Shown: piece by piece, positions 17,928-40,295 of the stretch
How positions within the stretch are numbered: the stretch's first letter is position 1
Layout: the number at the start of each line of letters is the position of its first letter
Source: an uncultured Collinsella sp.
Lineage (GTDB): Bacteria; Actinomycetota; Coriobacteriia; Coriobacteriales; Coriobacteriaceae
Reading direction: 5' to 3'
Assembly (NCBI GenBank): GCA_900546755.1
Contig: UREC01000009.1
Span: forward strand, 69-64,068
DNA: 64,000 bases
Made by a program: the position numbers and the translations under genes
The notes under the pieces: model-generated
The model's database searches: none
Seen by the model: only the letters and a program-made list of their open reading frames with translations
What the model was told of the DNA's origin: nothing

Positions 17928-17931
17928 AGTG

Positions 17932-22753: not shown

Positions 22754-22966
22754 CGCCCTACCCTCGCCATTTCTTTAAGAAGCCTTTACGTTTCCGTGTA
22801 ATTCCCGTCCATTATCGCGCAGGTCGCCGCTACATTGCGCAACACCGCCACGCACGCGCGTTATTATGGCTGGTTGTTGTGCGCAGTCACCAAATGCAGC
22901 GCATATCTTGGTAACAATCGGGTAAACCCCCGCTTTCGTAGGTTTTAGTTTGTGAGGAGTCTCAGC

Positions 22967-25267
22967 ATGTTCGCTGCCGCCATCTCGCTCGTCGGTCTTG
23001 CGGCGACCGTCTACCTTGTCTTGCGCGAGGCCAAGGCCATTCGCGCTCAGTCGGGCACCGTTGCCAAAAGCGCTCTTGGATGGAGCGTCGCCTTCGGCCT
23101 GTTCCAGCTCTTTTTGACCGTCTGGGGCGCCATTGGCCTCGTCGCCCAAAACGAGCCGCTCGCCTTTGTGATGCTCATCCTGACCAACGCCATCCTCACC
23201 GGCTGCGCTTGGGCCAGCATCGCCCGCGACCGTATCGCCCCGCGCGTCTTTGCGTTTGCCGCGCCCGATGCCCCCGCCCTCACCGGCAAGCTCGCCCGCC
23301 TGCGCGGCGCCTTTGTGGGCAAACCGCTCGTCGCCGCCGTCTTGTGCCTACTGCTCGCCGGCGTCTTTGCGCTGCTGGGCATGGAGGTCTCGTCCAACCA
23401 CGACTTTACCTGGATCTACCCCCTGTGCATTCTGCTCGAATGGGCCATTATCACCGTGCTCATGGTCGGCTTGTTCTTCCTATTCCAGCGCCACGGCGCA
23501 GCTCCCGCGGTCCTGGCCTTCGCCCTCTTTGTCCTGGGCATTGCCGAGTTTTTCGTCATCACGTTTAAATCCATGCCCATCCAGCCGGGCGACCTTTCGG
23601 CCATCTCCACCGCCGCCGCGGTCGCCGGCAACGGCTACACCTTCTCGATCTCGCTGTTCTGCGTGCTGTCCATGGGCTTTACCGCCATCGCCATGCTGCT
23701 GTGCGAGTACGCCGGCCTGGTGGCACCGCACCGTCAGAAGGGTGCCGCCAACGCCAAGCGCATGCTGCTCACCAACCTGCTCGTGGCAGTGCTGTGCCTG
23801 GGCGGCGTAACCGCGCATGTCACGCTCATCGACTACTACAACACCCTCGGCATCACCGTCTACACCTGGCGCCCGCTCGAGAGCTACTGGCGCGAGGGCT
23901 ACCTGCCCGCTTTCATTAGCGCAGCGCAGTCCATCAAGCCGCCCAAACCCGCCGACTACTCCGTCGACGATGCCAAGGCCACGCTCAAAAAGTACGCCAA
24001 GGCCTACGACAAGTCCGACGCGGCCAAGAGCGACGAGCGCGCCGCCGCAAAGGAGCAGTTCGACAGCGAGAAGCCCACGGTCATCGCCATCATGAACGAG
24101 ACCTTCTCGGATCTGTCAATCTACCAGAACATGCGCGCCGGCTACGAGGGCCCGCAGTACTTTAAGAGCCTGTCCAACTGCCTCAGCCGTGGCAAGCTCT
24201 ACGTGAGCGCCTACGGCGGCGGTACCGCCAATACCGAGTTTGAGTTTATGACCGGCAACTCCATGGCCAACCTGGGCTCGGGCGTGTACCCCTACACCAT
24301 CTACAACATGGAAACGACCGGGAACCTGGCAGAGCAGTTCAAGTCGCTCGGATATTCCACCACGGCCATGCACCCCAACCACGCGACCAACTGGAACCGC
24401 GAGAACGTCTACAAGGACTTTGGCTTTGACCAGTTCCTGTCCATCAACGACTTCCAGGGTGCCGACACCCTGCGCGGCATGGTGACCGACCAGGCGACAT
24501 ACGACAAGATTCTTGAGCTGCTCGACCAGAACGCCGACCCGCAGTTCATCTTCGACGTGACCATGCAGAACCACTCGGGCTACGACACGGGCCTGCTGCC
24601 GGTCGACAAGCAGATGCACCTGAACATCGACACGACCGACCTGGATGCCAAGACCGTCGAGGATGGCACGCTGTCCGATGTCGACGAGTATGTCTCGTGC
24701 ATCGAGCAGTCCGATCAGGCGCTGCGCTACTTCCTCAACGCCCTGAGCAAGCTCGACCGTAAGGTGGTCGTGGTGTTCTGGGGCGACCATCAGCCGTTCT
24801 TCCCGTCCAAGTTCAACGATAAGTGGTTTACCGGCGAGGACGACGCCACCCACCAGGAACGCTTGTGGCAGACCGACTACATCATCTGGGCTAACTACGA
24901 CGTTGCCGGTTGCGACCAGACGAGTGAGGTCGACGACCTGTCCACCAACTATCTGTCCACCCAGCTGATGCAGCTGATCGGCGCACCGCTGACCGACTAC
25001 CAGAAGGCGCATATGACATTGCGCGAGTCGCTGCCCGCCATCAACTCCGTCGGCTACGAGGACGCCAGCCTGCGCTGGGCGCTCTCCTCCAACGTCACCG
25101 GTGATGACGCCGTCGCCGCTGCTGCCACCAAGGCGCGCGAGGATTACGCCAAGATGCAGTATTACGAAATGTTCCGCGACGGCAAGAACGTCTACACCGA
25201 GCACTTCCAGACCGAGGCCAACGAAACCGACCCTAACTTGGCACCGGGTACGACCAAGATCAAATAG
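22967..25267 (+). CDS. LTA-synthase-family protein (polytopic N-domain + extracellular sulfatase/phosphoglycerol-transferase domain)
   Basis: N-terminal multi-TM block, then 'IMNETFSDLS', 'GGGTANTEFEF' and 'HPNHATNWNRENVY'. ATG at 22967, 7 nt after GAGGAG. Confidence 0.85.
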   Translation: MFAAAISLVGLAATVYLVLREAKAIRAQSGTVAKSALGWSVAFGLFQLFLTVWGAIGLVAQNEPLAFVMLILTNAILTGCAWASIARDRIAPRVFAFAAPDAPALTGKLARLRGAFVGKPLVAAVLCLLLAGVFALLGMEVSSNHDFTWIYPLCILLEWAIITVLMVGLFFLFQRHGAAPAVLAFALFVLGIAEFFVITFKSMPIQPGDLSAISTAAAVAGNGYTFSISLFCVLSMGFTAIAMLLCEYAGLVAPHRQKGAANAKRMLLTNLLVAVLCLGGVTAHVTLIDYYNTLGITVYTWRPLESYWREGYLPAFISAAQSIKPPKPADYSVDDAKATLKKYAKAYDKSDAAKSDERAAAKEQFDSEKPTVIAIMNETFSDLSIYQNMRAGYEGPQYFKSLSNCLSRGKLYVSAYGGGTANTEFEFMTGNSMANLGSGVYPYTIYNMETTGNLAEQFKSLGYSTTAMHPNHATNWNRENVYKDFGFDQFLSINDFQGADTLRGMVTDQATYDKILELLDQNADPQFIFDVTMQNHSGYDTGLLPVDKQMHLNIDTTDLDAKTVEDGTLSDVDEYVSCIEQSDQALRYFLNALSKLDRKVVVVFWGDHQPFFPSKFNDKWFTGEDDATHQERLWQTDYIIWANYDVAGCDQTSEVDDLSTNYLSTQLMQLIGAPLTDYQKAHMTLRESLPAINSVGYEDASLRWALSSNVTGDDAVAAAATKAREDYAKMQYYEMFRDGKNVYTEHFQTEANETDPNLAPGTTKIK

Positions 25268-25320: not shown

Positions 25321-25377
25321 GTTCCCTGCTCGGACAGTCCTGCGCAAGACGAAGGCCACATTAAGTGGCCTTCTTTG
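25321..25377. repeat. Left arm of a 56/57-nt near-perfect inverted repeat; contains terminator hairpin gaaggccac-atta-gtggccttc + tttg
   Basis: gttccctgctcggacagtcctgcgcaagacgaaggccacattaagtggccttctttg equals the reverse complement of 25751-25806, apart from one indel or mismatch. Confidence 0.85.
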
Positions 25378-25702
25378 TATTCGGAAAGTGTGTCCCGGAA
25401 TCTGCCTTCGGAATGGGACGCAGTTTCCGCTTGAGGGCCTGTTGGGAAAGCGCATCCCACTTCAAGAGTAAATTCCGGGTCGCACTTTCCGCTAAGGCTC
25501 TCAACCGGAAAGTGCATCCCATTCCAAGCCTTAATTCCGGGACATAGTTTCCGGACAAGACATCAACCGGAAAGTGGGGACCACTCTGAGCGCCGATTCT
25601 GGGACACACTTTCCGAAACACCGCCCATCCGGAAAGCCCGTCCCACTCCGAATACATCCAGGCATAAAATCATCAGCTTATTAGGCCTTCTATCAATAAA
25701 GA
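25378..25702. repeat. BIME-like repeat array, copy A: nine ~20-nt units in alternating orientation plus a conserved tail
   Basis: Units of type GGAAAG(Y)GCATCCCAYTCC alternate with their inverse AATTCCGGGWCRCASTTTCC. The tail is catcagcttattaggccttctatcaataaag. It is collinear with 35131-35450. Confidence 0.8.
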
Positions 25703-25750
25703 GACACCCTCCCGAGCGGCGGGCTCGAAGTTCATCGCGAGTTCCGCACG

Positions 25751-25806
25751 CAAAGAAGGCCACTTAATGTGGCCTTCGTCTTGCGCAGGACTGTAGAGCA
25801 GGGAAC
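25751..25806. repeat. Right arm of the 56/57-nt inverted repeat; serves as terminator for the minus-strand fibre operon
   Basis: caaagaaggccacttaatgtggccttcgtcttgcgcaggactgtagagcagggaac. It lies 45 nt downstream of the P4 stop. Confidence 0.85.
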
Positions 25807-25850: not shown

Positions 25851-26549
25851 CTAGTACTTATCCCTCCGGGACAAAAGTAGCGCGGCTATAAAAGCGATGC
25901 TGGCAAGAGTTAGCAAAACTAAAAGCAACGTGAGCGTGTTGTCGCCCGTTGCCGCCAGACCAAGCAAGCCGGGCTTCTTGCTGTCAGCAGACTGCACGGG
26001 AATCTTCTCGCCATCGTCCTCGGCGGTAATCTCCCAGCGAATGGTCTTGTTTGCGTCGGCAAGCTCGTTGCCCACCGACGTCGGAACGCTTAGCTGCAGA
26101 TTAAGCACCGTGCTGTCATCGCTCGTAAACGTGGCGATTTGCGTGGGATAGGCGAACACGCTGCCCGGTGTTCCTGTCTGGAGCCAACCTGCAGAGGCAT
26201 CGCCCACAGTCGCCGTTAAGGTGATGGGCGATAGCAGATGTGCCGTCTCGTGATCGACAACAGCCCGCACAAACACACGTACCTGGGACTTTACACCCGT
26301 GGTACGAACCCCAATCTGTTGCTCGCGTACATCGCCGGGCATTAGATCTTTAAAGGCTGGAAACAGATCGGGCTCCCCCGAGGAGTCCGTCGCTCCCGAT
26401 ACCGTTAGCTGGCGTGCATTTCCGTCATAGGCAATCGTGGGAACGTCAGCAAACGCACGTGCAGGAACGGCAAGCGCGATAAGGCAGACGATTGCCGCCA
26501 TCACGCAGCGCAAGGAACACACAACGTCTTTACGAATCGGAGAAGCCAT
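25851..26549 (-). CDS. TasA/camelysin-like protein with Sec signal peptide and C-terminal LAxTG cell-wall sorting signal (P4)
   Basis: Signal peptide '...LIALAVPARAFA/DV', core motif 'LFPAFKDLMPGDVREQQIGV', and C-terminus 'LAATG' + 23 hydrophobic residues + 'SRRDKY'. ATG at 26547-26549 after GGAGGTG, 2 nt after the P3 stop. Confidence 0.8.
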   Translation of the reverse strand: MASPIRKDVVCSLRCVMAAIVCLIALAVPARAFADVPTIAYDGNARQLTVSGATDSSGEPDLFPAFKDLMPGDVREQQIGVRTTGVKSQVRVFVRAVVDHETAHLLSPITLTATVGDASAGWLQTGTPGSVFAYPTQIATFTSDDSTVLNLQLSVPTSVGNELADANKTIRWEITAEDDGEKIPVQSADSKKPGLLGLAATGDNTLTLLLVLLTLASIAFIAALLLSRRDKY

Positions 26550-26551
26550 AC

Positions 26552-27121
26552 CTACGCACCTCCATGCGGCGGCACCAGCACGCCATCCTTGACTGTACAG
26601 CCCCATGCCTCTGCAACTGCATCGTCGGGCGTGGATTGAATTGCTTGGGTCGAAATGTCAACGACCAGGTTCTTCCCATCTGCCTTCTGCTCAGTCACGC
26701 TCTTGATGAGCACATCGGTTTTGCCCATCGGAGCAACGGGAGACGTCCAGTAGTAGTACCCGTCGGACGCGACAACCCAAGACGAGGCGGTGTTGGAAGC
26801 AGATGCCTTGGACACACTGCCCCAGTCAATGACGTAGTCGGTGCCGGCAACTGGCTCATCCCACAGGCGTGCGCCATCCTGGTCCTGCCAGTAGATATCC
26901 ACTGCAGCACGAATATAGGCGGGCGCAGTACCCGTGTTCTTCGCCTTGACATCGCTTTTCACTTTGCCGTTGAGCGTTTCCTGAACCGATGGCGTCACCG
27001 ATCCGATGCCGAACTGGTTGACCAGCACGCCCGTAACCGAAAGCCAGGCCAACGTGCCTGCCGTACCGGCCAGGAGGATAACCCCCACCAGCAAGGCGAT
27101 GATGCGCTTGCGCTTGGACAT
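26552..27121 (-). CDS. TasA/camelysin-like protein with SipW-cognate-type signal peptide (P3)
   Basis: 'MSKRKRIIALLVGVILLAGTAGTLAWLSVTGVLVNQFGIGSV', 'VKAKNTGTAPAYIRAAV', and C-terminal 'LVVDISTQAIQS'. AAGGAGGA RBS, 1 nt after the stop of the giant gene. Confidence 0.8.
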   Translation of the reverse strand: MSKRKRIIALLVGVILLAGTAGTLAWLSVTGVLVNQFGIGSVTPSVQETLNGKVKSDVKAKNTGTAPAYIRAAVDIYWQDQDGARLWDEPVAGTDYVIDWGSVSKASASNTASSWVVASDGYYYWTSPVAPMGKTDVLIKSVTEQKADGKNLVVDISTQAIQSTPDDAVAEAWGCTVKDGVLVPPHGGA

Positions 27122-27122
27122 G

Positions 27123-30100
27123 CTAATCCTCCTTCTTTGCTACGTTGCCGTTGCTCCAAACGTTATGGGCACGATCGCTGCCGTCGATCCATTTGTCGTT
27201 CACACGCGTGTTCGTGCAGGTGAACGTGGCATCGTTCGCGCTCGATGCAGACGAAATCGTCAGCTCGGCAGTTTTACCGGGCGCCTTGCCCGGCGTGCTC
27301 AGCTCACCCTGGTAGCGCCATGCCCAAGCCGTATCTTCCTCGACGGTATAGATGCCAGCCGGAGCGGCGAACTGCACGCTGCCGACATAGCAAGTTTCAC
27401 CGTTTTCGTCGCGCTGCTCGCTAACTTTCACCTCGACCATGCGCGTCTCGGCAGGAGAATCCTGCGACATCTTTCGCGTTACCTTAAAGCGGAACGTTTG
27501 CCCCATAGCGCTGGCATCGGTCGTCTTTTTAACGATCGTCAGCGCATGAGTCTGGGCAAAGTTGAACACGGCTTTGCCGGGGCCCTGATCGCCCTCGCCC
27601 GTCTTCTTGGACTCCAGACGGTTGGCCAGGTCGAACGAGCCGTCACCCGAACCAAGGCTGTAGAGCGAGACAAACTTGCCGTTTACGGGCTCTTCCGCCA
27701 CAGAAACACCCTCTGTACCAGGCCCGTAGCTTGCCCGCATTACCGTAACGGTCAGCCGCGTTCCCATAAACGGCTTGGCAAAGCAGACCTTAAACGGCGC
27801 CTTGTCGGCACTGTCATCGACGGTGTTGGCGGCGGCGGGATCGAGCAGCCACTTAAGCTGGGCGGTCATGGTTTCGGACTTCGCGGGATCAGACGTATCT
27901 TTGGCAACCACGCGATATGTAACGGGATACAGGTCCATGTCGCCCTTAATTGGCTCGTCCTTAAACACATCCCAAGGCTTCGTATCACCATCGGCGCCCA
28001 CATATCGCCACTCCAAGAAGAGCTCACGCATATCGCCATTGGCGGCCGCACGCTCATCGAGCAGCGCGACGATCTTGGAATGGGCGTCCGGGTCGTATGC
28101 CACGGACTTTTGCTCCATCATGGGATTCCCGCTGTTGTCATAGACGGGGCGGCCGTTCTCATCCATTTTGGGAACATCAACCGTATAGACGAAGCCGGAC
28201 TTGCCGTCCTGCGCACGCTCGTCGCCCGAGTCGACCGTCGCCGTAAAGAGAACCGACCCGTCGACACCGTGATAGCGCACCTTATGCGGCGCAATCTTGT
28301 ACACCGCAGTGTACATCGCGCTCTTAAAGGGCTCATTGCCCTCGAGGGGATACTTGTCGTCACCGGTCATCAGGGTGTACTTGTTATCGGATTCATAGTC
28401 ACGCGACCAGCAGACAAAGTCGTACTTGGTGCCATCCTTGCCGACAACCTCAGTTGCAGCTTTTACCTCCAGCGAAATTTGATCACCAGAGTCGGTCCGC
28501 GAAAGATAACGCACAGAACCGGGGTCATCCAGATTGGCATCGATATTCGATTGAACACGCACCGCGCTGGCGCGGTAGACCGGATACAACTCCATGGGGG
28601 CCTTGACCACGGTGCTTTTATTCACCATGGAAACGTCGTCCGACCAAACGACATAACCGTTGCCAGCTACCGGCTTAGTTTCCGTCCAGCCCACGAAGGC
28701 ATTGTATGCGTTTGTTGCAGCATCGATATCGCCGACGTTATACGTTGGCAGCGGGATGCCGTCCTTAAGGCTGCCGAGAGAATCGCCCTGCTGGGCTACC
28801 TTACCGTCCACATCCCTGGCATTGAGATGGTACACAACCGCCAACGGCGAATAGTACGCCACGAATGTATAGGCTCCGCCAGGTTCCACCGGATAAGAGC
28901 AAGTACCATGCTCCACATCGTAGGGAAGCGTCTTGATCTCGCCGTTCGGAAGCTCGATCTCAACCTTCTGCAACTTATACAGCTCACCGCCTGCTTTATA
29001 AACCGGCGTCGTAACGTCAGGGGTCACCGTTGCCGTAGCAGGATTGGTGTCCGCGTTGATAACGGGAGCGATGTTGTAGCTAGGCACATTGACCTTGTCC
29101 GTACCCTCAAAACCTGCGCGATGCAGGTTGGTGGTGTAGCTGACGTCGTACTTTGCGTAGACGGGATAGGCATCCTGCCACTGGGTGACCTTGGACTCGT
29201 CGGTCGCCAGATACGGCTCTGCCTTATCCGGATCACTCGTCACATAGGAGTCGCCGGCGACGTCGTAGATATACTTCCAGACGTCAGAATCCTTCTGAAC
29301 CTCGGCGGTCGAAATCCAGCCCAGGAACTTATAGCCCGGCACGGCCATGTCGGCATCGGTCGGGGAAGCTTCGAGGGTCAGGGGGCTCTCATACGATCCC
29401 TTCTCACCATCTTCTGGCTTTTCGGCCACTTTAACCGACTTATTAACATGCGGGTAGTAATACGTGAACGTCGGATCCGCCCCGTTCACCTTGGTCTGCA
29501 GCAAGTTACTCTCATAGCGCCGCGTGGCAGTCCTCACGACATTATCGCCCTTGTTGTAGAAATTAACGTCCGTGGTAATCATCGCGCGAACGTAGTACTT
29601 CTTATCTGTACGCACCATGCTCTCGATGGGATTTTTCACATATGTCCAATATTCACCATCGCGCTCAAGCGTCCAGAAATTCAGGCGATAGCGATCATTC
29701 ACCGGTTTGACCGTTACGTTCAGCGAAGCCGAAGTCCAAGTATCGCTTAGCGTTGCAGCGCCTGGAAAATCGGTATCGGCATAGAGGTTTTTTAGAGTAT
29801 CGGCTCCCGTATCGTTTTTAACGTTGTGCGAGTACGCGTTAAGGGGACTCACGACAAGGGTTTCCTTCGTGAAGCGCGTGCCACACGTTTCATAACTATC
29901 CTTTATACCGTGGTCAACATGCTCCGGGCCCCAGTGGACGACGTTTTCACGCACGAAGGTACTACCGACGTTTTCCTCAAAGGGCGTTTGATAGCGATTC
30001 CAAACGGAACAAAGTAGCTTGCTGTCCGTAAACTCATGGTTGGTATAAGCCCGAACGTAATAATCCACTCGGTACTCAAAGCGGGCGATGTAGGTATGCG

Positions 30101-32594
30101 GCGCGGTTAAATCGACATCGGCGGGGAGCGTATAGCTGGGGTCGCGGCTTACGCGCACCTCGAGCGGGGCATCCTCGGTTCCCTTGTTTTCATACCAACC
30201 CAGGAAACGATAGCCGTCGGGCAGCTGGCCCTCCTCGGATATAGCTTTACCGGATACGTCGAGCACCCGTACGGTATACGCGCTTGTGCCATCCTCGGCA
30301 GTCTCAACCTTAACGTCAGTTTTGCCCACACCGTCGCGCCGAGTCTGATCGTCGGTTGCATCCTGCTCATTGCCCTCAAACACCGTCATGATGTTCGACA
30401 CATAGTCGGTGTACACCGGATAAAAATCGGTAGGACCAAGCACAGTGATCTCGGTGCCGGCAGGATAGAACGCACCGGCGTTTTTTAGCTCGGCAAGCTT
30501 AGGCGAGGTGATGGCCGCGTAACCGCCATGCATCCCGGCCTCGCCACTCGGCTGCGTCGTCCAACCGATAAAGGTGGCGCTGGCGGAAAGAGTGCCGCGG
30601 TCCGCAGGGGCAGCCGGCGTTAAACCGACGCCATAGCGGTACCAGTCCGTCGACTTGTCGTGCTCCTCGCCGCTCTGCCACGCGAGCGTCTCGCCCTTGA
30701 CGTTATAGAACAGTACCTGCGCCTCGTACGAAGCAATAAACAGGTCGTTGCCCTTAAAGGCCTCGGCCCCCTTCGCGTTATCGGCGGTATAGGTCGACGT
30801 TATCTCGTGCGCTTCGTTCTTCTGGACCTGCTTGCCAGCCTTAACGGCATCGGCATCGGTCTTGCCGTTAAACCAGGCGTTATCGGCATCGATACGGTTC
30901 ACATTGACTCCGGACTCGCGGAACCAGCCCATGAAGCGATAACCGCCGTTGGCATCGGTCAAGCCCTTGGGCTTTGCGGAGGTATCCTGCCTAAACGTCA
31001 CCGATGTATCGCCCTGGGCCAAGCCCTGGGCCGTTCCCGCCAGCACGGCGCTCACGGCAAAGGCGTACGGATCCGAGGTCGCTTGATCAATACCGAGTTT
31101 GGTTGCCGTAATTGTCGCGGTACCCGCACCGGGAAAATCGATCGTCGCCTTAACGCTCTGGCCATGCACAGGAATATTCAGCTTGTAATCCATCGCCCAC
31201 TCATTGGGGTGCGGGCCATCCAGGGTCCCGTCGTTAGCAGTCGAGCGCATGGTGCCGGCACAGAAGTCGTAGTCGTGCTCTTCCCACAGCTCGCGCGTGG
31301 TGTAGCGCTCGTCGTCCCATGGACCATAGCTGTCGCCCTTGGTGGTACCGTCGCCGCCAAAAGAGGGGATCTTTTTCTTAGCCGCGGTACCCTGGCTGCT
31401 GCCTTTTAGGCTCACGCTCGGCTTAAAGTAGCACTCGGTGACCGTGGCATCATCCTTGTTGGCACGCGCGGCAATACCGCCCAGGTTCACATCGTTTTGA
31501 ATGATGGGGATCACGGCGATGGGATTGTACTGACGCGAGCTCAAGTCACCCGCAAAATGGCTTCGAACGAGCTCGTTGCCCTTTTCGGTTAGAATACGAC
31601 CCGCCAAGCCACCCGTCCACGCACGCGTCACGGCGACGACGCCCACATATGACGCGGCATAGCTGTAGCACTGCGCCGTCGAGAAGCAGTCGATAATCTT
31701 GGCCTCGCCCGCCATGCAGCCCACAAAACCCGAGGCGTACACGTTGTTGCCGCCCAGGGCGCCAATGGCCACGTCGTACTTATTGGTGACGTCGGTCATG
31801 CCAATCGAGCCATCATCTTTGCGCGTAGGCGTAACGCGGCAGTACTCAATCGTCGAATTTGTAACGTAGCCGGCAAACGCCGCCATATACAGACCCTCAC
31901 CGCCGAGCGCCTGCACGCCCGAGGTCGTGTTGTTAACGGCGCGGCCACCACGTACCTCGCAGTTATAGAGGGTACAGCCGTCGAGCTCGCCGGCGATGAG
32001 ACCGCCCTCAAAGCCTGCGTTGGTAATGAGGTTGAGAGCATTGTTGGCGCAGGTCACGTGCAGCGTGCTCTCCATGACCATAACGTTTTCGAAACGCGTT
32101 TTGACGGCCTTGCCCACGATAATGCCACCGCGGAAGTCCGCCCACACGTTGGCGTCCTTGACCAGGAAGTTTTTGATGGTGGCGCCGTTGGTCTCGGCAA
32201 AAAATCCCGTATCGCGCTCGGGGTCAAAAGCGTCTTTATCGTAGTTCAGGCCCTCAACGGCGTGGTTTTGACCATCGAACACGCCCTTAAACGGATGCTC
32301 CTTGTTGCCAAACGACAGATGCTTAACGGTGTCTGCAACGATGGTTTTCATGTCGTCGCTGTCGAGCTCAATGTCGTTATCGAGATAAACGTGCCAGCCG
32401 GACGTATCGTGCTCGCGCGACAGCGCCACACACGACAAAAAGTCAGCCTCGTTTTTGATGTGGAATTCGATTTTGGCCTCGGGCACATCCTCGGCATGCA
32501 CCACCGTTGGCAGCGCCATAACGCAGCAAAGGGCAATCGCTGCGACGGCAACCAGCCTGCTAAGCATACCCCGGTTCATATTCTTGATCTTCAT
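27123..32594 (-). CDS. 1823-aa secreted surface protein: signal peptide, GLUG-motif region, multiple InlB-B/Listeria-Bacteroides-type repeats, C-terminal Cna-B/prealbumin-like domain; no LPXTG or TM anchor
   Basis: Signal 'VAVAAIALCCVMALPTVVHA/ED'. N-terminal module 'FKGVFDGQNHAVEGL'. GLUG-like repeats 'GGIIVGKA', 'GGLIAGEL', 'AAFAGYV', 'SGFVGCMAG', 'GGLAGRI', 'GGIAARA'. B-repeat hallmarks 'YRFMGWF', 'FIGWTT', 'YRFLGWY', 'YKFLGWIS', 'FVGWTE', 'FVCWS' with recurring 'YPVY'. C-terminus 'TFRFKVTRK...GIYTVEEDTAWAWRY'. Confidence 0.85.
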   Translation of the reverse strand: MKIKNMNRGMLSRLVAVAAIALCCVMALPTVVHAEDVPEAKIEFHIKNEADFLSCVALSREHDTSGWHVYLDNDIELDSDDMKTIVADTVKHLSFGNKEHPFKGVFDGQNHAVEGLNYDKDAFDPERDTGFFAETNGATIKNFLVKDANVWADFRGGIIVGKAVKTRFENVMVMESTLHVTCANNALNLITNAGFEGGLIAGELDGCTLYNCEVRGGRAVNNTTSGVQALGGEGLYMAAFAGYVTNSTIEYCRVTPTRKDDGSIGMTDVTNKYDVAIGALGGNNVYASGFVGCMAGEAKIIDCFSTAQCYSYAASYVGVVAVTRAWTGGLAGRILTEKGNELVRSHFAGDLSSRQYNPIAVIPIIQNDVNLGGIAARANKDDATVTECYFKPSVSLKGSSQGTAAKKKIPSFGGDGTTKGDSYGPWDDERYTTRELWEEHDYDFCAGTMRSTANDGTLDGPHPNEWAMDYKLNIPVHGQSVKATIDFPGAGTATITATKLGIDQATSDPYAFAVSAVLAGTAQGLAQGDTSVTFRQDTSAKPKGLTDANGGYRFMGWFRESGVNVNRIDADNAWFNGKTDADAVKAGKQVQKNEAHEITSTYTADNAKGAEAFKGNDLFIASYEAQVLFYNVKGETLAWQSGEEHDKSTDWYRYGVGLTPAAPADRGTLSASATFIGWTTQPSGEAGMHGGYAAITSPKLAELKNAGAFYPAGTEITVLGPTDFYPVYTDYVSNIMTVFEGNEQDATDDQTRRDGVGKTDVKVETAEDGTSAYTVRVLDVSGKAISEEGQLPDGYRFLGWYENKGTEDAPLEVRVSRDPSYTLPADVDLTAPHTYIARFEYRVDYYVRAYTNHEFTDSKLLCSVWNRYQTPFEENVGSTFVRENVVHWGPEHVDHGIKDSYETCGTRFTKETLVVSPLNAYSHNVKNDTGADTLKNLYADTDFPGAATLSDTWTSASLNVTVKPVNDRYRLNFWTLERDGEYWTYVKNPIESMVRTDKKYYVRAMITTDVNFYNKGDNVVRTATRRYESNLLQTKVNGADPTFTYYYPHVNKSVKVAEKPEDGEKGSYESPLTLEASPTDADMAVPGYKFLGWISTAEVQKDSDVWKYIYDVAGDSYVTSDPDKAEPYLATDESKVTQWQDAYPVYAKYDVSYTTNLHRAGFEGTDKVNVPSYNIAPVINADTNPATATVTPDVTTPVYKAGGELYKLQKVEIELPNGEIKTLPYDVEHGTCSYPVEPGGAYTFVAYYSPLAVVYHLNARDVDGKVAQQGDSLGSLKDGIPLPTYNVGDIDAATNAYNAFVGWTETKPVAGNGYVVWSDDVSMVNKSTVVKAPMELYPVYRASAVRVQSNIDANLDDPGSVRYLSRTDSGDQISLEVKAATEVVGKDGTKYDFVCWSRDYESDNKYTLMTGDDKYPLEGNEPFKSAMYTAVYKIAPHKVRYHGVDGSVLFTATVDSGDERAQDGKSGFVYTVDVPKMDENGRPVYDNSGNPMMEQKSVAYDPDAHSKIVALLDERAAANGDMRELFLEWRYVGADGDTKPWDVFKDEPIKGDMDLYPVTYRVVAKDTSDPAKSETMTAQLKWLLDPAAANTVDDSADKAPFKVCFAKPFMGTRLTVTVMRASYGPGTEGVSVAEEPVNGKFVSLYSLGSGDGSFDLANRLESKKTGEGDQGPGKAVFNFAQTHALTIVKKTTDASAMGQTFRFKVTRKMSQDSPAETRMVEVKVSEQRDENGETCYVGSVQFAAPAGIYTVEEDTAWAWRYQGELSTPGKAPGKTAELTISSASSANDATFTCTNTRVNDKWIDGSDRAHNVWSNGNVAKKED

Positions 32595-32597
32595 AGG

Positions 32598-33245
32598 CTA
32601 GTTCGCCTCCGGCCAACCCACAACGTCAAGTACGTCGAGGGCGGTATCGCTTGTCTGCTGGTTTTTGGCCTGCACGGCCTGAACATCGATATCGAGCTTG
32701 AATGAGCCGCCGCGCGCGGCATCGTGGTAGTCGCCCACAAATCGCAGCGAGTCCATAAGGCTTTCCGTCATGGCGCCGGGGTCGAGCATGCCGCCACGCC
32801 CGGCCAATCCACGGTAGTAGTACCACCCATCGCCGCCGTCGATCCACGGGGACCCCTCGTCCGCGTTCACATGAAACGCAACGCTGCCCGAGGCATCCGC
32901 ACTCGAACCGTCGGGTGCCACTGACGTCATGCGTAGACGAGCGCGAACGTACTCAGGCTGCGCGCCGGCGTTCTCCACGCGTACAATGCGGCTGATGTCA
33001 GAGCCCCCGGCCTTGGTGTCGGGATAGTCCCCGCGCTCGTTGGCCTCAAACGGAATCTCCTCGCCCCGCTCGTTGAGGGTGTATTCGCAGACTCGTACCT
33101 TCACGCTGCCAAACGATAGGACGTTGTTCGCCGGAACCATATCAACGGTAAAAGCCAGCGTGCCACACATGCACGCCAGGGCCAACAGCGCAATCGCGGC
33201 AAGCGCCAAGGTGCGTTTCTGATTGTCGGAAAGATTGTTGAGCAT
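32598..33245 (-). CDS. TasA/camelysin-like protein with SipW-cognate-type signal peptide (P2)
   Basis: 'MLNNLSDNQKRTLALAAIALLALACMCGTLAFTVDMVPANNVLSFGSVKV', 'VRVENAGAQPEYVRARL', and C-terminal 'FKLDIDVQAVQA'. The start could be the ATG at 33243-33245 or the TTG at 33257, and the RBS is weak. Confidence 0.75.
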   Translation of the reverse strand: MLNNLSDNQKRTLALAAIALLALACMCGTLAFTVDMVPANNVLSFGSVKVRVCEYTLNERGEEIPFEANERGDYPDTKAGGSDISRIVRVENAGAQPEYVRARLRMTSVAPDGSSADASGSVAFHVNADEGSPWIDGGDGWYYYRGLAGRGGMLDPGAMTESLMDSLRFVGDYHDAARGGSFKLDIDVQAVQAKNQQTSDTALDVLDVVGWPEAN

Positions 33246-33265
33246 TACGTTCGCCAATCGTCGAT

Positions 33266-33322
33266 AAAAAGGGGGACCGAGATCCCAGCCCGAATATAGG
33301 GGTGGGGGCGGGCCGGGATCTC
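33266..33322 (-). terminator. Intra-operon rho-independent terminator/attenuator between P1 and P2
   Basis: Minus strand: gagatcccggcccg-(16-nt loop)-cgggctgggatctc, then ggtccccc and ttttta. It starts 10 nt after the P1 stop. Confidence 0.6.
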
Positions 33323-33332
33323 AGTGGGGGGA

Positions 33333-34097
33333 TTAAGCCTGAGCCTGAGTCTTAGCCCATTCCTTGGCCTGCTTAAGGGCATTCTGCGCGTCAGCATTTT
33401 CACCCTGCTCGGTGCCATTCTGGCCCGCGCCAAAGATGTAGGCAGAGACCGTCATCGTGGGAGCCTGTTTCGGGTCAGTAGTAGTCTCGACAACATCGGT
33501 GTTGTTCATGGCAGAGGGAATCGTCACGGCAGTGAAAAGCTCATCGGTATAAACGTCCTGCTCTGCTTTGTTGGCTTCGAGCTTTGCAGGCAGGTTCTCT
33601 GCGGCAGAGTTCTTGGAGTACATAAACAGACCGCTCACGTACTGGTTGCCAGAGTTGTCAGATTGGTTGGTCTTGACTTGACCCTCAACGGGCTTCCAAT
33701 TCGTATTTTTGAGCGTAAAGTACGGGGTCTTTTCAAGGCTGGTGCCAGGCTTGACGATGGCATTCTTTACGTAAATGAATACGTATGCATCATCAGAGCC
33801 AGCCTTGATGCCGACATTGGGGTTCTTGGCCACAGTGGCGCCAGGAACCATCTTGGAGTTGGCAACCCACTGGGTCTCGAACAGGTAGGCCTTTTCAGTG
33901 TTCGGATTATCGGGGTCCGGTTTCTCGGGATCGGTCGGATCAGGCTTGTTTTCCGGGTGGCCAAAGCTACCCACCGTGAACACGTTGTCAATGTGCTCCT
34001 GCGCCGTCAGCCATGCATAGGTACCCACACCGGCGGCCATCACCAACAGCAGCAGGGCGGCAATGATGCCGTAGCGCTTTTTCTTCTTGTTTTCCAT
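33333..34097 (-). CDS. TasA/camelysin-like protein with SipW-cognate-type signal peptide and Pro/Asp-rich linker (P1, putative major subunit)
   Basis: 'MENKKKKRYGIIAALLLLVMAAGVGTYAWLTAQEHIDNVFTVGSFG', then 'HPENKPDPTDPEKPDPDNPNTEK', 'KMVPGATVAKNPNVGIKAGSDDAYVFIYV', and C-terminal 'TMTVSAYIFGAGQ'. ATG at 34095-34097 after AAGGAAG. The 71-codon upstream extension in the ORF track overlaps sipW and is Arg/Gly junk. Confidence 0.8.
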   Translation of the reverse strand: MENKKKKRYGIIAALLLLVMAAGVGTYAWLTAQEHIDNVFTVGSFGHPENKPDPTDPEKPDPDNPNTEKAYLFETQWVANSKMVPGATVAKNPNVGIKAGSDDAYVFIYVKNAIVKPGTSLEKTPYFTLKNTNWKPVEGQVKTNQSDNSGNQYVSGLFMYSKNSAAENLPAKLEANKAEQDVYTDELFTAVTIPSAMNNTDVVETTTDPKQAPTMTVSAYIFGAGQNGTEQGENADAQNALKQAKEWAKTQAQA

Positions 34098-34168
34098 CGT
34101 TCTCTTCCTTTCGAAAATCGACTTCCCCGGCAACGGCCCTTGCCGTTGCCGACACCTCTCCCCTGCCG

Positions 34169-34726
34169 CTATGAACGCCGCTCCCTCGCATGCGCGCGGG
34201 CATGCTTGCCCGCAGGCTCGTCGGGAACCACCCGATCGAGCACTATCGACGCCGCGACCAGCAGCGCCAGAACGGCCACCACAACAAGCAAACCGGGCAT
34301 CGTCGTGCAATATGCGTTAACGAAGCCCAGGTAAGGGACACAAAAAGAGACAGTGCCGATCACGCGTGAAAAAGGCGTCTGCTCGGCATCGTGCATGATG
34401 GTTCCATCTGCATTTTTGTTTGCGATTCCCTGCGTGCCGATCGTCTGCGCGGCAGGGTCGATCTCGTACACCTGGTGCGTCACCACGGCGCCGTCCGATC
34501 GGTAAAAGGTTGCATTGTCGCCCACGGTAATATCCGTTGGCTCAACCTGGCGGACAAACACCATGGAGCCAACGGGAAGATCGGGTTCCATAGAGCCCGA
34601 AAGCACAGCAAAGGGCATGTATCCAAATGCGCGAGGCACAAAAGAAACAACGGCAAGGGCTATGACAAGCGCGAACGCCAAGCTACTCAAAAGTGCAATA
34701 AATCGTTTGAGTCTACGCGCAGCCAA
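34169..34726 (-). CDS. sipW: Signal peptidase I, SipW/archaeal-ER type
   Basis: N-terminal TM, 'AVLSGSMEPDLPVGSMVFV', a downstream 'VTHQV' His, and the C-terminal TM 'GLLVVVAVLALLVAASIVL' that is typical of SipW. The start is an apparent TTG at 34724-34726, and no in-frame ATG precedes the TM. Confidence 0.8.
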   Translation of the reverse strand: MAARRLKRFIALLSSLAFALVIALAVVSFVPRAFGYMPFAVLSGSMEPDLPVGSMVFVRQVEPTDITVGDNATFYRSDGAVVTHQVYEIDPAAQTIGTQGIANKNADGTIMHDAEQTPFSRVIGTVSFCVPYLGFVNAYCTTMPGLLVVVAVLALLVAASIVLDRVVPDEPAGKHARAHARERRS

Positions 34727-34852
34727 AGTGATAATTCATCCCCCTTGAGGACCTATTCGACCCATCCAAAGGTCAGCAAGTTTCAACAGGAACCGCAAGG
34801 CGCTTGAAAAGTGAGTCCGAAATAAGCCAATTTGGAATCTTTTCGTAATAAA

Positions 34853-34881
34853 AACATAGCGATGTGCTACACATTTTTCAA
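34853..34881 (-). promoter_or_regulatory. Candidate sigma-70-type promoter for the fibre operon (TTGAAA-17 nt-TATGTT)
   Basis: Minus strand: ttgaaa aatgtgtagcacatcgc tatgtt, about 125 nt upstream of sipW in an AT-rich region. The spacer contains the small palindrome atgtg-N3-cacat. Confidence 0.3.
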
Positions 34882-35018
34882 TGTTTTGTCGCTAAATGCT
34901 ACCTATTTTGGCGTAAGTGGTCATTTATCACCAAATTAGTCTGTTTTATCCAATATCTGTGACTAACCCCCTACGCAACTTCCCCATAGAGGGATCATTT
35001 TTTTGCGAAACTAAAATA

Positions 35019-35046
35019 ATGGTACCCCCCCCCCACATTAAAACAA
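35019..35046 (-). promoter_or_regulatory. Second candidate promoter whose 16-nt spacer is mostly a G10 tract (TTGTTT-taatgtGGGGGGGGGG-TACCAT)
   Basis: Read directly from the minus strand of 35019-35046. Hexamer matches are moderate: the -10 matches TATAAT at 4 of 6 positions, including A2 and T6. Confidence 0.3.
35025..35034. repeat. Homopolymeric C10 (G10 on the coding strand of the operon)
   Basis: ggta-cccccccccc-acatta. It is the only long homopolymer I noticed by eye in the window. Confidence 0.95.
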
Positions 35047-35130
35047 ACTGCTGGAAGCGCCATTTATTTCCGACCCCTTTTACTAGAGTTTTTATGACAA
35101 CCTCATGTAGTTCGCAGCCCATAACCCTCT

Positions 35131-35450
35131 GAAAACCGTGTCCCAGAATTCCCGTCCGGAGTGGGATGCGGCTTCCGCTTGTGGCCCCGTTGGGAAGCCG
35201 TATCCCGCTTCGATCACAAATTCCGGGTCGCACTTTCCGCCAAGACCCTCAACCGGAAACTACATCCCATTTCTCGACCGAATGCTGGGATGTAGTTTCC
35301 ACAGAGCCCTTCACCGGGAAACCGCATCCCATTCCAAAGGCAAATTCCGGGACGCAGCTTCCGCAACCCCACCCATCCGGAAATCCCATCCCACTCCGCA
35401 CACATCCGGGCATAGAACAATCAGCTTATTAGGCCTTCCATCAATAAAGG
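35131..35450. repeat. BIME-like repeat array, copy B (collinear with, and in the same orientation as, 25378-25702)
   Basis: Same nine alternating units, for example gggaagccgtatcccgcttc / aaattccgggtcgcactttccg / ccggaaactacatcccatttc. Same tail, aatcagcttattaggccttccatcaataaag. Confidence 0.8.
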
Positions 35451-35467
35451 GGCGCCCTCGTGTCATG

Positions 35468-35496
35468 AAAAAAGCCCCGAGAATCTCGAGGCTTTC
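35468..35496 (-). terminator. Rho-independent terminator of the flavodoxin-like gene
   Basis: Minus strand: gaaagcctcgaga-ttc-tcggggcttt followed by ttttt. Confidence 0.7.
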
Positions 35497-35537
35497 ACGT
35501 TTGTACGATTGAACGCGCGGCACCGCAAGCGGCGAAG

Positions 35538-40092: not shown

Positions 40093-40295
40093 TGTGACCC
40101 TGCCGGCACTCGCGGGTAGCCGCGGCACGAAAAAGCGCCTGCGCACTCGATGGATTCGGATGCCCGACAGAGGCTCCTTATGGCTGCTTCCTTCCGGACC
40201 TGACCAGATTCGGAACATGTCGTCATCCGAACCCATCGAACGCGCTAGGCGCTCGATATATCTTACCTGCTCCCGCCCGATGGGGCAAGACAGCT
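40093..40295 (-). ncRNA. ffs: Signal recognition particle RNA (ffs; long Gram-positive-like form, ends approximate)
   Basis: The minus strand contains ctggtcaggtccggaaggaagcagccataagg, the conserved SRP domain-IV motif. It is flanked by long complementary arms: tcgatgggttcggatg / catccgaatccatcga, and gcgcctagcgc / gcgcaggcgc. Confidence 0.8.

Follow-up and report, generated by a model that had tools for sequence, protein, structure and literature searches.

In this study, we analysed a stretch of 64,000 nucleotides (the window) from Collinsella, a common human gut bacterium, in which a six-gene operon most likely builds a wall-anchored fibre of the TasA/BsaA type that carries a giant adhesin. 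The core of the sequence-only reading, which had proposed an operon for a SipW-processed, TasA-type fibre that includes an anchor subunit and contains an adhesin gene, is supported by profile methods; fibre formation itself we infer, along with polymerisation, the order of the subunits and what the adhesin tail does. In our view, the locus is probably an operon of the bsa/tasA type that encodes a heteropolymeric, wall-anchored surface fibre (pilus). It comprises the following features, with the basis of each assignment in brackets.

35138..35438, no strand assigned: upstream copy of a nested-palindrome repeat array of about 300 nt (repeat comparison)
35025-35034, minus strand: variable poly-G tract (length 7-12 across loci)
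34853-34881, minus strand: sigma-70-like site (promoter-like match)
34727..35130, minus strand: AT-rich region upstream of sipW (GC 49% for 34727-35537)
34169..34726, minus strand: SipW-type (archaeal/ER-type) signal peptidase I, 185 aa, TTG start, N- and C-terminal TM segments (TIGR02228, SEC11 alignment)
33333..34097, minus strand: P1, candidate major fibre subunit (TIGR04088, BsaA-family hhalign, AF2/Foldseek)
33276..33325, minus strand: 17-bp hairpin with short U tract between P1 and P2 (folding energy, conservation, terminator scan)
32598..33245, minus strand: P2, putative BsaA-family minor subunit with C-terminal GWP motif, directly upstream of the adhesin gene (P3 homology, TIGR04090 family)
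27123..32594, minus strand: adhesin-like protein of 1823 aa, ordinary signal peptide at aa 1-34 (motifs, positional homologues)
27207..27542, minus strand: C-terminal CnaB-type (SpaA_4/DUF5979-like) domain of the adhesin, aa 1685-1796 (Lys-Glu-Asn triad in LTIVK, YTVEE and FTCTN)
27126..27206, minus strand: invariant adhesin tail W-[LI]-x-G-x5-N-x-[WF] (KWIDGSDRAHNVWSNGNV) (alignment, PSSM)
26552..27121, minus strand: P3, putative BsaA-family minor subunit directly downstream of the adhesin gene (homologues, sub-threshold TIGR04090)
25851..26549, minus strand: P4, putative wall-anchor (base) subunit with predicted TasA-like beta-sandwich (family motifs, hhalign, AF2/Foldseek)
25854..25958, minus strand: P4 sorting signal, L(A/V)ATG with TM segment and basic tail (regex scan, alignment)
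25380..25690, no strand assigned: downstream copy of the same repeat array of about 300 nt (repeat comparison)

All six co-directional genes described beforehand are present on the minus strand, and their order is unchanged in every complete Collinsella locus examined. The gaps between them measure 71, 87, 3, 1 and 2 nt; of the range of 1-75 nt given earlier, the upper value requires the TTG at 33257 as the start of P2. The operon is indeed lower in G+C, but modestly so (57.1% versus 60.6% in the rest of the window, the seventh lowest among 111 equal-size windows), with a GC3 of 62-74%; three neighbouring genes reach 80-87%, and the flavodoxin gene directly upstream 73%. P1 was found in 1264 blocks of the public assemblies searched, as well as in 188 genome records, one GTDB species each. 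The two nested-palindrome repeat arrays bracket the operon, the downstream one being enclosed in turn by inverted arms of 53 nt with terminator hairpins.

The peptidase encoded first in the operon carries both the stretch LSGSMEPDLPVGSMVFV and the C-terminal TM segment ascribed to it, and the archaeal-type signal peptidase I profile TIGR02228, suggested as a check, gives 75.3 bits (cutoff 51.85), compared to 66 bits (cutoff 190) with the equivalog model for Bacillus SipW. Its Ser (SGSMEP) and His (THQV) align with SEC11A/C of human SEC11, and the protein is conserved over its full 185 aa in 80 loci. P1 combines a SipW-type signal peptide, the donor-strand motif NVFTVGSF, a Pro/Asp-rich linker and a beta-sandwich body, and passes the SipW-cognate signal model TIGR04088 with 30.2-34.7 bits (cutoff 19). 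An enriched profile of the P1 family aligned with the BsaA family in hhalign (99.4%, E 1.4e-21, 163 columns). The AF2 model of P1 (pLDDT 71.9) has the TasA fibre 8aur as its best Foldseek match (prob 0.87, E 6e-3) and the archaeal bundling pilus 7ueg among its best, all Foldseek matches of P1 and P4 lying at E > 1e-3 and TM 0.3-0.4.

P1 is also the most variable gene of the operon, with a mean pairwise identity of 0.77 (minimum 0.57), compared to 0.81 for P3, 0.82 for the adhesin, 0.90 for P4, 0.91 for SipW and 0.93 for P2, the most conserved structural gene. The hairpin behind P1 has a folding energy of -33.6 kcal/mol (z = -3.6) and is detected by the terminator scan as well. A stable hairpin follows P1 in 40 of 40 distinct Collinsella intergenic sequences; several of them show paired changes in the stem, and locus L041 has a different hairpin between P1 and P2. 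We regard this element as a putative attenuating terminator or 3' stabiliser.

The basic n-region and hydrophobic core read from P1, P2 and P3 are present in each, as are GT(Y/L)A(W/F)(L/T) and N-x-(F/L)-x-x-G-S. That the small proteins are four paralogs cannot be seen when they are compared directly: BLASTP joins P2 and P3 only (24% over about 190 aa), P1 and P3 have the signal peptide alone in common, and P4 has no match. All four fall below the cutoff of the Peptidase_M73/camelysin Pfam profile that had been proposed as a check. Judged from sequence, P1, P2 and P3 are members of the TasA/BsaA superfamily, a relationship visible at profile level only. With the P2/P3 profile, a search picks up 4025 cluster representatives (E <= 1e-3), and 101 of 113 sampled members of this family match TIGR04090 BsaA, while P2 and P3 themselves miss its cutoff (P3 with 25.5 bits, cutoff 60). 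On TIGR04088, P2 fails, showing the visible motif only, and P3 is sub-threshold. N35 and E48 of the donor-strand motif are almost invariant.

For P4, the expected sortase-type anchor is borne out, since the protein has LAATG, a TM segment and RRDKY at its C-terminus; of 50 genomes, 38 have LAATG and 12 LVATG. LAxTG is the typical motif of class E housekeeping sortases in Actinobacteria; the 64-kb window contains no sortase gene. The signal peptide of P4 is an ordinary one of the AxA kind and not of SipW type. Upstream of the sorting signal, the P4 family shares the motifs TIxYDGxA(K/R), DLFxxFKxxMPGD and GNE(L/Y)(A/Q). With the BsaA profile, hhalign aligned the N-terminal part of P4 only (90.7%, E 1.3e-6, 47 columns). 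In Foldseek, its AF2 model (pLDDT 73.8) matches TasA (8aur, 5of1, 5of2) with prob 0.98-0.99 and, with prob 0.97, the archaeal bundling pilus 7ueg, all at weak E, and cohesins and other beta-sandwiches have similar scores. P4 is a remote relative of the TasA/BsaA superfamily rather than an obvious paralogue.

In the 1823-aa protein, a conserved N-terminal region containing a single GLUG-like motif is followed by degenerate Flg_new-like repeats and, at the C-terminus, by the CnaB-type domain and the conserved tail; the protein contains neither a TM segment nor LPXTG. Its Pfam matches are all sub-threshold. The designation as a GLUG adhesin comes down to a single marginal match of 18 residues (19.9 bits, Pfam cutoff 20.5), and the Listeria-Bacteroides repeat reaches just 13-15 bits of the required 27. 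YRFxGW-type motifs lie at aa 552, 795, 1088 and 1391. The C-terminal domain stays below the cutoffs of SpaA_4 (16.8 bits) and FctA (13.9 bits); the Lys-Glu-Asn triad is invariant in seven homologous adhesin C-termini, their profile matches the CnaB domains of PDB 7w6b and 7vcn with E 7e-7, and DUF5979 scores 38 bits in the adhesin homologue of locus L088. In the tail, W, G and N are invariant in seven adhesins. With a PSSM built from 51 donor segments of SipW substrates, the tail is the best site of the whole adhesin (14.2 bits, the next site at -2.0, and 0 of 200 shuffles as high) and ranks first in the adhesins of L087, L091 and L092 as well; its likeness to a donor strand is significant in just the two adhesins of Coriobacteriia type, another site ranks first in three of seven, and hhalign gave no support for the resemblance. 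We propose that the tail mimics a donor strand and docks the adhesin on the fibre.

Beyond Collinsella, where the synteny search suggested earlier shows the order recurring in all complete loci, the same cassette was found in 9 of 9 other, unrelated loci (GC 40-61%), obtained by look-ups of distant P3-like proteins. There, a module of P2-like gene, large adhesin, P3-like gene and P4-like anchor stands behind SipW and 2-6 TasA-like genes. The P3 homologues in these nine loci are 34-62% identical and hold the same position, and P2-like genes lie upstream of the large gene in L087-L095, hence in 10 of 10 cassettes including the window. Adhesin heads are swapped between loci (VWA, PA14, BNR, MucBP, Flg_new), and so are the anchors of the P4 family, which is present in all nine and ends in LPXTG-like motifs or SLH (LAATG, FSKTG, PPQTG, LIQTG; SLH in L089 and L091); some related loci (L088, L090) encode a sortase. 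The hosts belong to several other, distant bacterial lineages from metagenomes, including at least four human-gut samples.

We propose a model in which all five structural proteins would be exported by Sec, and P1, P2 and P3 would be cleaved by SipW, leaving a free N-terminal strand with the motif N-x-F-x-x-G-x-V. This strand would enter the beta-sandwich of the adjacent subunit by donor-strand exchange, as in TasA and BsaA. Hypervariable P1, transcribed ahead of the attenuator-like hairpin, would form the shaft, while P2 and P3, separated from the adhesin and anchor genes by gaps of just 1-3 nt, would be low-copy adaptors made in step with adhesin and anchor. The C-terminal tail would act as the donor-strand mimic that keeps the adhesin on the fibre, and P4, cut by ordinary signal peptidase, would terminate the fibre, and a sortase whose gene lies elsewhere would couple it to peptidoglycan. 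We favour the order adhesin - P2 - (P1)n - P3 - P4 - wall.

It is conceivable, but rather unlikely, that the operon makes two products, with P4, P3 and the adhesin in a short 1:1:1 strand-complemented stalk that displays the adhesin, and P1, perhaps nucleated by P2, in a separate, released matrix fibre resembling TasA/BsaA. The genes for adhesin, P3 and P4 are contiguous, 1-2 nt apart, and behave as one recombination block independent of P1, since in L035 and L058 P3 and P4 are 100% identical to the window and P1 is 98% and 65% identical, respectively. The hairpin moreover parts sipW-P1 from the remaining genes, comparable to the bicistronic sipW-bsaA transcript (PMC7395162). BsaA polymers are mainly released (PMC7395162), and in C. 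perfringens strain 13 BsaB is left out of BsaA oligomers and BsaC occurs in the secretome (PMC11580942); accessory proteins therefore need not be fibre parts. However, P2 too is coupled to the adhesin, by a 3-nt gap and by its constant upstream position in the cassettes, and a single assembly fits at least equally well.

We consider it very unlikely that the small proteins are secreted camelysin-like proteins, enzymes or chaperones that aid export or folding of the giant surface protein. The Pfam family name Peptidase_M73 would suggest so, but is considered a likely misidentification (PMC11580942). Accessory TapA acts as initiator or chaperone only (PMC10151520), and the family-membership scores of the window's own proteins (Pfam, NCBIfam) are sub-threshold; against this stand the full-length homology of P1 to the polymer-forming BsaA family and the conserved donor-strand motif, and a conserved wall-anchored member along with several paralogues per operon suits a polymer better than an enzyme. 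A classical sortase-dependent pilus of the SpaA type, in which the CnaB-containing giant would be the tip pilin and P4 the base pilin, is extremely unlikely: although the adhesin C-terminus is homologous to the CnaB domains of 7w6b and 7vcn (entries titled 'von Willebrand factor type A domain protein'), a sortase signal is present in P4 and L088 and L090 encode a sortase, the adhesin lacks LPXTG and TM segment, operon and window contain neither a pilin-type shaft protein nor a pilus-specific sortase, the SLH anchors of L089 and L091 need no sortase, and the operon begins with SipW and SipW-type substrates.

For the wall-anchored heteropolymeric fibre that we prefer, the closest studied system is the C. 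perfringens sipW-bsaABC operon, whose BsaA polymerises and appears extracellularly in a SipW-dependent manner (PMC7395162, Obana 2020). AlphaFold-Multimer models its donor-strand exchange, and mutations of predicted isopeptide residues abolish oligomerisation (PMC11580942, Kivimaki 2025 preprint); the intermolecular Asn-Glu-Lys isopeptide lock is a feature of C. perfringens BsaA. In sipW-bsaA-bsaB-bsaC(-bsaRSD), SipW comes first, the polymerising subunit next, and then a terminator with read-through (PMC7395162), an arrangement matched here by SipW, the candidate subunit P1 and the putative terminator. Both operons also have further BsaA-family paralogues and a large secreted protein, whose adhesion-type domain is a vWA in C. 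perfringens. P2 and P3 fall into the NCBIfam BsaA neighbourhood, and most C. perfringens strains have one BsaB paralogue with LPXTG and a sortase gene near. In contrast, the host here is an actinobacterium, the adhesin (1823 aa, with a GLUG-like/Flg_new-like head instead of vWA) has a paralogue on either side and a dedicated anchor protein further downstream, and the operon has no two-component system and no adjacent sortase. Anchoring and adhesin attachment are not established in C. perfringens either.

With B. subtilis tapA-sipW-tasA and B. cereus sipW-tasA-calY, the locus shares a SipW-type peptidase encoded with its own substrates, and 8aur, a fibre of beta-sandwiches polymerised by an inserted N-terminal donor strand, is the top or a high-probability match for P1 and P4. 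TasA filaments start by a strand donated from TapA, a cell-associated accessory protein (PMC10151520); no TapA homologue was found at the window locus. Unlike in Bacillus, whose products are matrix fibres and not wall-anchored adhesive pili, the SipW equivalog model is far from its cutoff and Pfam M73 below it, and a sortase-anchored subunit and a giant adhesin are added. Archaeal bundling pili (AbpA, 7ueg) and Sulfolobus threads likewise show a TasA-like fold, donor-strand complementation and an archaeal-type signal peptidase, but are homopolymers for which no adhesin, adaptors or wall anchor are described. The layout also recalls sortase-assembled Gram-positive pili, with a modular-head tip adhesin ending in CnaB, a variable shaft and a base anchored by housekeeping sortase; here, however, the shaft is of TasA type, subunits are presumably strand-inserted instead of linked by sortase-made Thr-Lys bonds, and the W-L-x-G-x5-N-x-W tail stands in for an adhesin LPXTG. 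Chaperone-usher pili (Fim, Pap) are equally donor-strand-exchange heteropolymers with major subunit, low-copy adaptors, tip adhesin, PapH-like terminator/anchor and an attenuating hairpin behind the major-subunit gene, but the families are unrelated, and a dedicated signal peptidase would prime the subunits here, where chaperone, usher and outer membrane are lacking.

As to the earlier remark that no characterised system of this composition is known, the locus is uncharacterised but not unique, given the cassette in nine other loci and the analogous parts of the C. perfringens bsa operon. The sequence-only interpretation was largely right, and the locus represents a variant, itself uncharacterised, of a type of system already known. 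New here are the hypervariable P1 with the conserved attenuator-like hairpin behind it and the recurring P2-adhesin-P3-P4 cassette with its swapped heads and anchors, unstudied in the lineages that carry it.

The six minus-strand open reading frames in which the sequence-only reading had seen a composite surface-fibre operon are all present, and the motifs it quoted are found in them. In transcription order they encode a SipW-type signal peptidase, two small structural proteins (P1, the candidate shaft subunit, and P2), a giant adhesin and two further small proteins (P3 and P4, the latter the candidate wall-anchor subunit).

Genes and expression signals of the operon; identities are mean pairwise protein identities computed over 50 complete loci
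34169-34726, minus strand: SipW, 185 aa, TTG start, identity 0.91
33333-34097, minus strand: P1, 254 aa, identity 0.77 (minimum 0.57)
33276-33325, minus strand: hairpin between P1 and P2, 17 bp and a short U tract, dG -33.6 kcal/mol, z = -3.6
32598-33245, minus strand: P2, 215 aa, identity 0.93
27123-32594, minus strand: adhesin, 1823 aa, identity 0.82
26552-27121, minus strand: P3, 189 aa, identity 0.81
25851-26549, minus strand: P4, 232 aa, identity 0.90; public gene calls agree on its placement
35025-35034, minus strand: poly-G tract of 10 G, some 300 nt ahead of the start codon of sipW

From SipW to P4, the intergenic gaps measure 71, 87, 3, 1 and 2 nt. The last four genes thus lie close enough for their translation to be coupled, and P1 is set apart. 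A stable hairpin lies 3' of P1 in 40/40 distinct Collinsella intergenic sequences, several of which carry paired stem changes, while the most divergent locus has a different hairpin instead. In the bsa operon of C. perfringens, a terminator after bsaA yields a sipW-bsaA transcript and read-through (PMC7395162); the Collinsella hairpin mirrors this arrangement and, by analogy, would fit production of P1 in excess. The region upstream of sipW is AT-rich and contains a sigma-70-like site, and among loci with the same flanks the poly-G tract is 7, 8, 9 (24 loci), 10 (18 loci) or 12 nt long, differences which could stem from phase variation by strand slippage or from errors in assembling the homopolymer. 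The TTG start of the 185-aa SipW is preceded by a GGGGGA Shine-Dalgarno sequence and kept across loci. In public gene calls the signal peptidase begins at an internal ATG, giving a protein of 149 aa that has lost its N-terminal membrane anchor (window 34619-34726).

Two repeat arrays bracket the operon, and further structured elements were found in the window:

25380-25690 and 35138-35438, direct orientation: a pair of arrays, each about 300 nt long and composed of nested palindromes with a unit of about 62 nt
25334-25386 and 25742-25794: 53-nt inverted arms, 94% complementary, flanking the downstream array
40144-40239, minus strand: small bacterial SRP RNA (Rfam)
42526-42612, plus strand: tRNA gene (Rfam)

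The arrays are 75% identical to each other and strongly self-complementary (z = -6.5), both positions are kept in most Collinsella loci, and no further copy was found elsewhere in the 64-kb window. They correspond to no known RNA family in Rfam, whose matches in the window are confined to the SRP RNA and the tRNA; they could be insulators, recombination substrates or MITE remnants. Each 53-nt arm holds a hairpin, GAAGGCCAC-N5-GTGGCCTTC, and the arms probably terminate transcription in both directions, from P4 and from the sulfatase-family gene that converges on it (22952-25267).

SipW exceeds the cutoff of the archaeal/ER-type signal peptidase I model TIGR02228, as anticipated (75.3 bits, cutoff 51.85), and that of Pfam Peptidase_S26 (27.1 bits, cutoff 22.9). 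The Ser of its SGSMEP motif and the His of THQV align with VLSGSMEP and VHRV of human SEC11C/A (PDB 7p2q, 7p2p), and the catalytic pair is the Ser-His of the Sec11/SipW type as opposed to the Ser-Lys of bacterial LepB. An orthologue of Bacillus SipW in the strict sense was rejected, as the score against the equivalog model NF046067 is 66.4 bits at a cutoff of 190; the two are the same enzyme type, not equivalogs.

The description of P1 to P4 as four paralogs does not stand: all-against-all BLASTP joins only P2 and P3, the similarity of P1 and P3 is limited to the signal peptide, and P4 has no match among the others. Their proposed membership of the TasA/camelysin family was not recovered with curated models, all of which stay below cutoff for the window proteins, but homology emerged via family profiles. 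Peptidase_M73 (PF12389) reaches 18.6 bits on P1 (cutoff 22.5), at the N-terminus only, and does not match P2, P3 or P4; the BsaA family model TIGR04090 (cutoff 60) gives 25.5 bits for P3 and 20.1 for P2. The SipW-cognate signal model TIGR04088 (cutoff 19) supports the predicted signal peptide for P1 (34.7 bits), but not for P3 (14.5 bits) and without a match in P2, P4 or the adhesin. The SipW-type signal motif of P2 and P3 is visible by eye, with which hhalign agrees, and the donor-strand motif N-x-F-x-x-G-x-V is conserved in SipW-type substrates. A joint profile of P2 and P3 retrieved 4025 cluster representatives at E <= 1e-3, and 101 of 113 sampled relatives match TIGR04090 (best E 1e-32), which makes P2 and P3 divergent members of the BsaA family.

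For P1 and P4, family matches required enrichment of the alignments with distant homologues from other lineages (for P1, the first-position genes of the cassettes described below). After enrichment, hhalign matched P1 and its relatives to the BsaA family over 163 columns (99.4%, E 1.4e-21); for the Collinsella-only P1 alignment the match was confined to the signal peptide and donor strand. For the enriched P4 family the match covers the N-terminal 47 columns only (90.7%, E 1.3e-6), which lays the mature N-terminal strand of P4 over the family donor strand; the Collinsella-only P4 alignment gave no match to the BsaA family. Against PDB sequences, single-sequence searches of P1, P3 and P4 found no match, and the P2/P3, P4 and P1 family profiles missed TasA. 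Two of three homologue searches, those with P1 (identities of 59% or more) and P4 (82% or more), returned close Collinsella relatives only, and the AF2 input alignments were therefore shallow. The P1 model (pLDDT 71.9) has the TasA fibre 8aur as top PDB match (prob 0.87, E 6e-3, TM 0.30) and the archaeal bundling pilus 7ueg in third rank. For the P4 model (pLDDT 73.8), the top matches include TasA structures 8aur, 5of1 and 5of2 (prob 0.98-0.99) and 7ueg (0.97) at E 2e-3 to 2e-2, with cohesin scores equal to those of TasA. The fold evidence from these models is consistent for P1 and P4, not decisive, all E values being weak (2e-3 to 2e-2). Between donor strand and body, P1 carries a Pro/Asp-rich linker, HPENKPDPTDPEKPDPDNPNTEK (aa 46-69, window 33960-33890), which is present in Collinsella and in one locus outside the genus (L087) and missing from the P1-like proteins of other loci; such a linker would make for a more flexible, beads-on-a-string shaft.

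The 1823-aa adhesin carries a signal peptide of ordinary type and lacks an anchor. Its designation as a GLUG protein with Listeria-Bacteroides repeats was not borne out, since a single Glug motif (PF07581, aa 238-255) reaches 19.9 bits against a cutoff of 20.5 and Flg_new (PF09479) 13.6-14.9 bits against 27; positional homologues of the adhesin pass Flg_new, that of L089 with 73.6 bits. Similarity to other taxa is confined to the last 140 residues. In seven aligned C-termini, a CnaB-type Lys-Glu-Asn triad (LTIxK, YTVxE, TFxNxR) and a tail of the form W-[LI]-x-G-x5-N-x-[WF] are invariant, and the profile of these seven sequences matches the CnaB domains of PDB 7w6b (E 6.8e-7) and 7vcn, both entitled 'von Willebrand factor type A domain protein'. 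On SpaA_4 the window adhesin scores 16.8 bits (cutoff 27.3); its homologue in L088 passes Pfam DUF5979 (38.4 bits against 25), which a recent survey counts among CnaB-like isopeptide domains (PMC12617251). From these alignments, the C-terminal domain appears to be of CnaB type with a predicted isopeptide triad.

In sortase pili a CnaB-type domain is followed by LPXTG, whereas in the Collinsella adhesin the conserved tail occupies that position. The tail shares the W-to-N spacing of 9 residues and the N-x-aromatic element with SipW substrates (P1 AWLTAQEHIDNVFTVGSF vs adhesin KWIDGSDRAHNVWSNGNV). Each adhesin was scanned with a donor-strand position matrix built from 51 SipW-substrate segments, none of them adhesin-derived: the best site in the 1823-aa adhesin is the tail, at 14.2 bits, with the next site at -2.0 and 0/200 shuffles as high. 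The tail ranks first in L087 as well (10.9 bits) and, non-significantly, in L091 and L092; in three other adhesins scanned it does not rank first, and the similarity of tail and donor strands in hhalign is non-significant. We hypothesise that the tail is a donor-strand mimic.

P4 is the candidate for the sortase-type anchor subunit that the sequence-only reading proposed, with a C-terminus (...LAATGDNTLTLLLVLLTLASIAFIAALLLSRRDKY) that combines sorting pentapeptide, hydrophobic segment and basic tail, and a signal peptide of ordinary AxA type. L(A/V)ATG is retained in 50/50 genomes, LAxTG being the motif of class E housekeeping sortases of Actinobacteria. Curated anchor models do not match P4 itself, one P4-like homologue reaching 19 bits against 20, and no plausible TLxTC-containing open reading frame for a sortase was found within the 64-kb window.

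The same order of genes was found outside Collinsella. Nine of the matches to a profile built from distant P3-like proteins were inspected on their contigs (L087 to L095, GC 40 to 61%), and a common arrangement is seen in the eight loci that include the upstream end, the contig of L093 stopping short of the SipW position: SipW, 2-6 TasA/M73-like proteins (1 in L087), then a cassette of P2-like protein, large protein, P3-like protein and P4-like protein. Gene assignments are backed by BLASTP and alignments. The P2-like proteins of these loci end in GWP, and the large proteins, of 1021-2405 aa, end in a domain of CnaB type, aligned for 6 of the loci, and a W-L-x-G tail. Their heads vary between loci (VWA, Flg_new with MucBP, BNR, PA14), as do the anchors, which are LAATG, FSKTG, PPQTG or LIQTG sorting signals or, in L089 and L091, three SLH domains; in L088 and L090 a sortase gene follows the cassette. 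Heads and anchoring chemistry are thus swapped around a constant core, which is our strongest argument that the large protein would be the functional payload and P4 the wall attachment. Genes for tyrosine integrases or serine recombinases adjoin the cassette in L088 (157-1281 and 17113-18066), L095 (802-1944) and L093 (12721-14229), and in these Firmicutes-like loci the cassette may reside on mobile elements. In the high-GC locus L087, a second giant protein (11664-18395, 2243 aa, Flg_new) lies directly 3' of the P4-like gene, and its C-terminal hydrophobic segment and basic tail resemble a wall or membrane anchor.

Within Collinsella, the operon is not unique to the genome of the window. P1 is present in 1264 blocks of a public assembly collection, and a close homologue from Collinsella aerofaciens bears the NCBI name SipW-dependent-type signal peptide protein. 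A scan of one genome per species, dominated by Collinsella and without cross-genus synteny, yielded relatives of P1 in 188 genome records, and Collinsella or Coriobacteriaceae account for all of the best 80. Synteny, proposed as a check on the operon, confirmed that the six-gene order recurs, being identical in every locus long enough, and the chromosomal setting is constant, with a flavodoxin/ABC-transporter block on one side and a sulfatase-family gene on the other. The lower G+C content remarked on earlier is real (57.1% vs 60.6% in the rest of the window), but the deficit is small; GC3 is 62-74% in the operon, as against 80-87% in three of its neighbours and 73% in the adjacent upstream flavodoxin gene. 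With so small a deficit, and with a chromosomal position that is the same from strain to strain, acquisition of the island by horizontal transfer is not established.

P1 occurs in discrete allele classes at about 100, 83, 66 and 60% identity, which are uncoupled from the downstream block: in the Collinsella locus L058, P3 and P4 are 100% identical to those of the window, P1 65%. Such a divergent P1 beside an identical downstream block points to recombination between the two. Set against the window, L035 (also a Collinsella locus) and L058 show the operon as a mosaic, with the 3' adhesin-P3-P4 block up to 100% identical and P1 down to 65%. In the adhesin, residues 100-500 are most conserved (0.91-0.95) and the C-terminal two-thirds most variable (0.72-0.85).

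Enzyme type, family relationships, anchor signal, conserved module, hairpin and variability pattern are established here; assembly is approached by analogy with TasA (PMC9674648; PMC10151520), BsaA (PMC11580942) and archaeal pili, the structure models being monomers. By this analogy, SipW would release an N-terminal strand on P1, P2 and P3, which would complete the sandwich of the neighbouring subunit. P1 would form the shaft, P2 and P3 would serve as adaptors, synthesised in step with adhesin and anchor, the adhesin would dock via its tail, and P4, which has no SipW-released strand, would terminate the fibre and attach it to the wall. We prefer the order adhesin - P2 - (P1)n - P3 - P4; adhesin, P3 and P4 might instead form a short stalk, with P1 in a fibre of its own. 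A sortase-dependent pilus of SpaA type was rejected, as the locus has no shaft protein with a pilin motif, no LPXTG on every pilin and no class C sortase.

In a tentative reading, somewhat on the doubtful side of even, the operon would represent a third, widespread class of Gram-positive pilus: a SipW-primed donor-strand-exchange heteropolymer that would need neither chaperone and usher nor sortase-made polymer bonds. A four-gene module of P2-like adaptor, modular adhesin, P3-like adaptor and TasA-fold anchor would bear interchangeable heads (GLUG/Flg_new, VWA, PA14, BNR, MucBP), the adhesin being attached by a C-terminal donor-strand mimic in place of the LPXTG of sortase-pilus tip adhesins, and the fibre would end in a subunit fixed to the wall via sortase or SLH domains. 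In Collinsella the shaft gene would be hypervariable, with expression perhaps phase-variable via the upstream poly-G tract.

Among studied systems the C. perfringens bsa operon comes closest, with SipW, the polymer BsaA, its paralogue BsaB and the vWA protein BsaC, where BsaB bears LPXTG in most strains and a sortase gene is adjacent (PMC11580942). According to the same authors, BsaA/TasA genes are often found in putative operons together with genes for LPxTG and SpaA-domain proteins, signal peptidases and sortases, and heteropolymers could exist; the general idea is therefore already published (PMC11580942). In the literature searched we found no description of a fixed module of P2, adhesin, P3 and anchor, of adhesins that end in a CnaB-type domain plus tail, of the P4 family or of the Collinsella locus, and nothing on how Collinsella attaches to other cells, to mucus or to food particles.

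The genus ranks with the most prevalent Actinobacteria of the gut, and the operon, found throughout it and equipped with a dedicated adhesin, offers a concrete candidate for such attachment. The variability of P1, among the highest in the region, bears on how strains are typed, on immune recognition and possibly on phage adsorption. TasA/BsaA fibres are currently viewed as scaffolds of the biofilm matrix. With a conserved cassette that supplies adaptors, an exchangeable adhesin and a wall anchor, they would become true adhesive pili and, if so, a Gram-positive counterpart to the chaperone-usher logic; the cassette makes testable the long-standing question of how TasA-type fibres start, end and attach to the cell.
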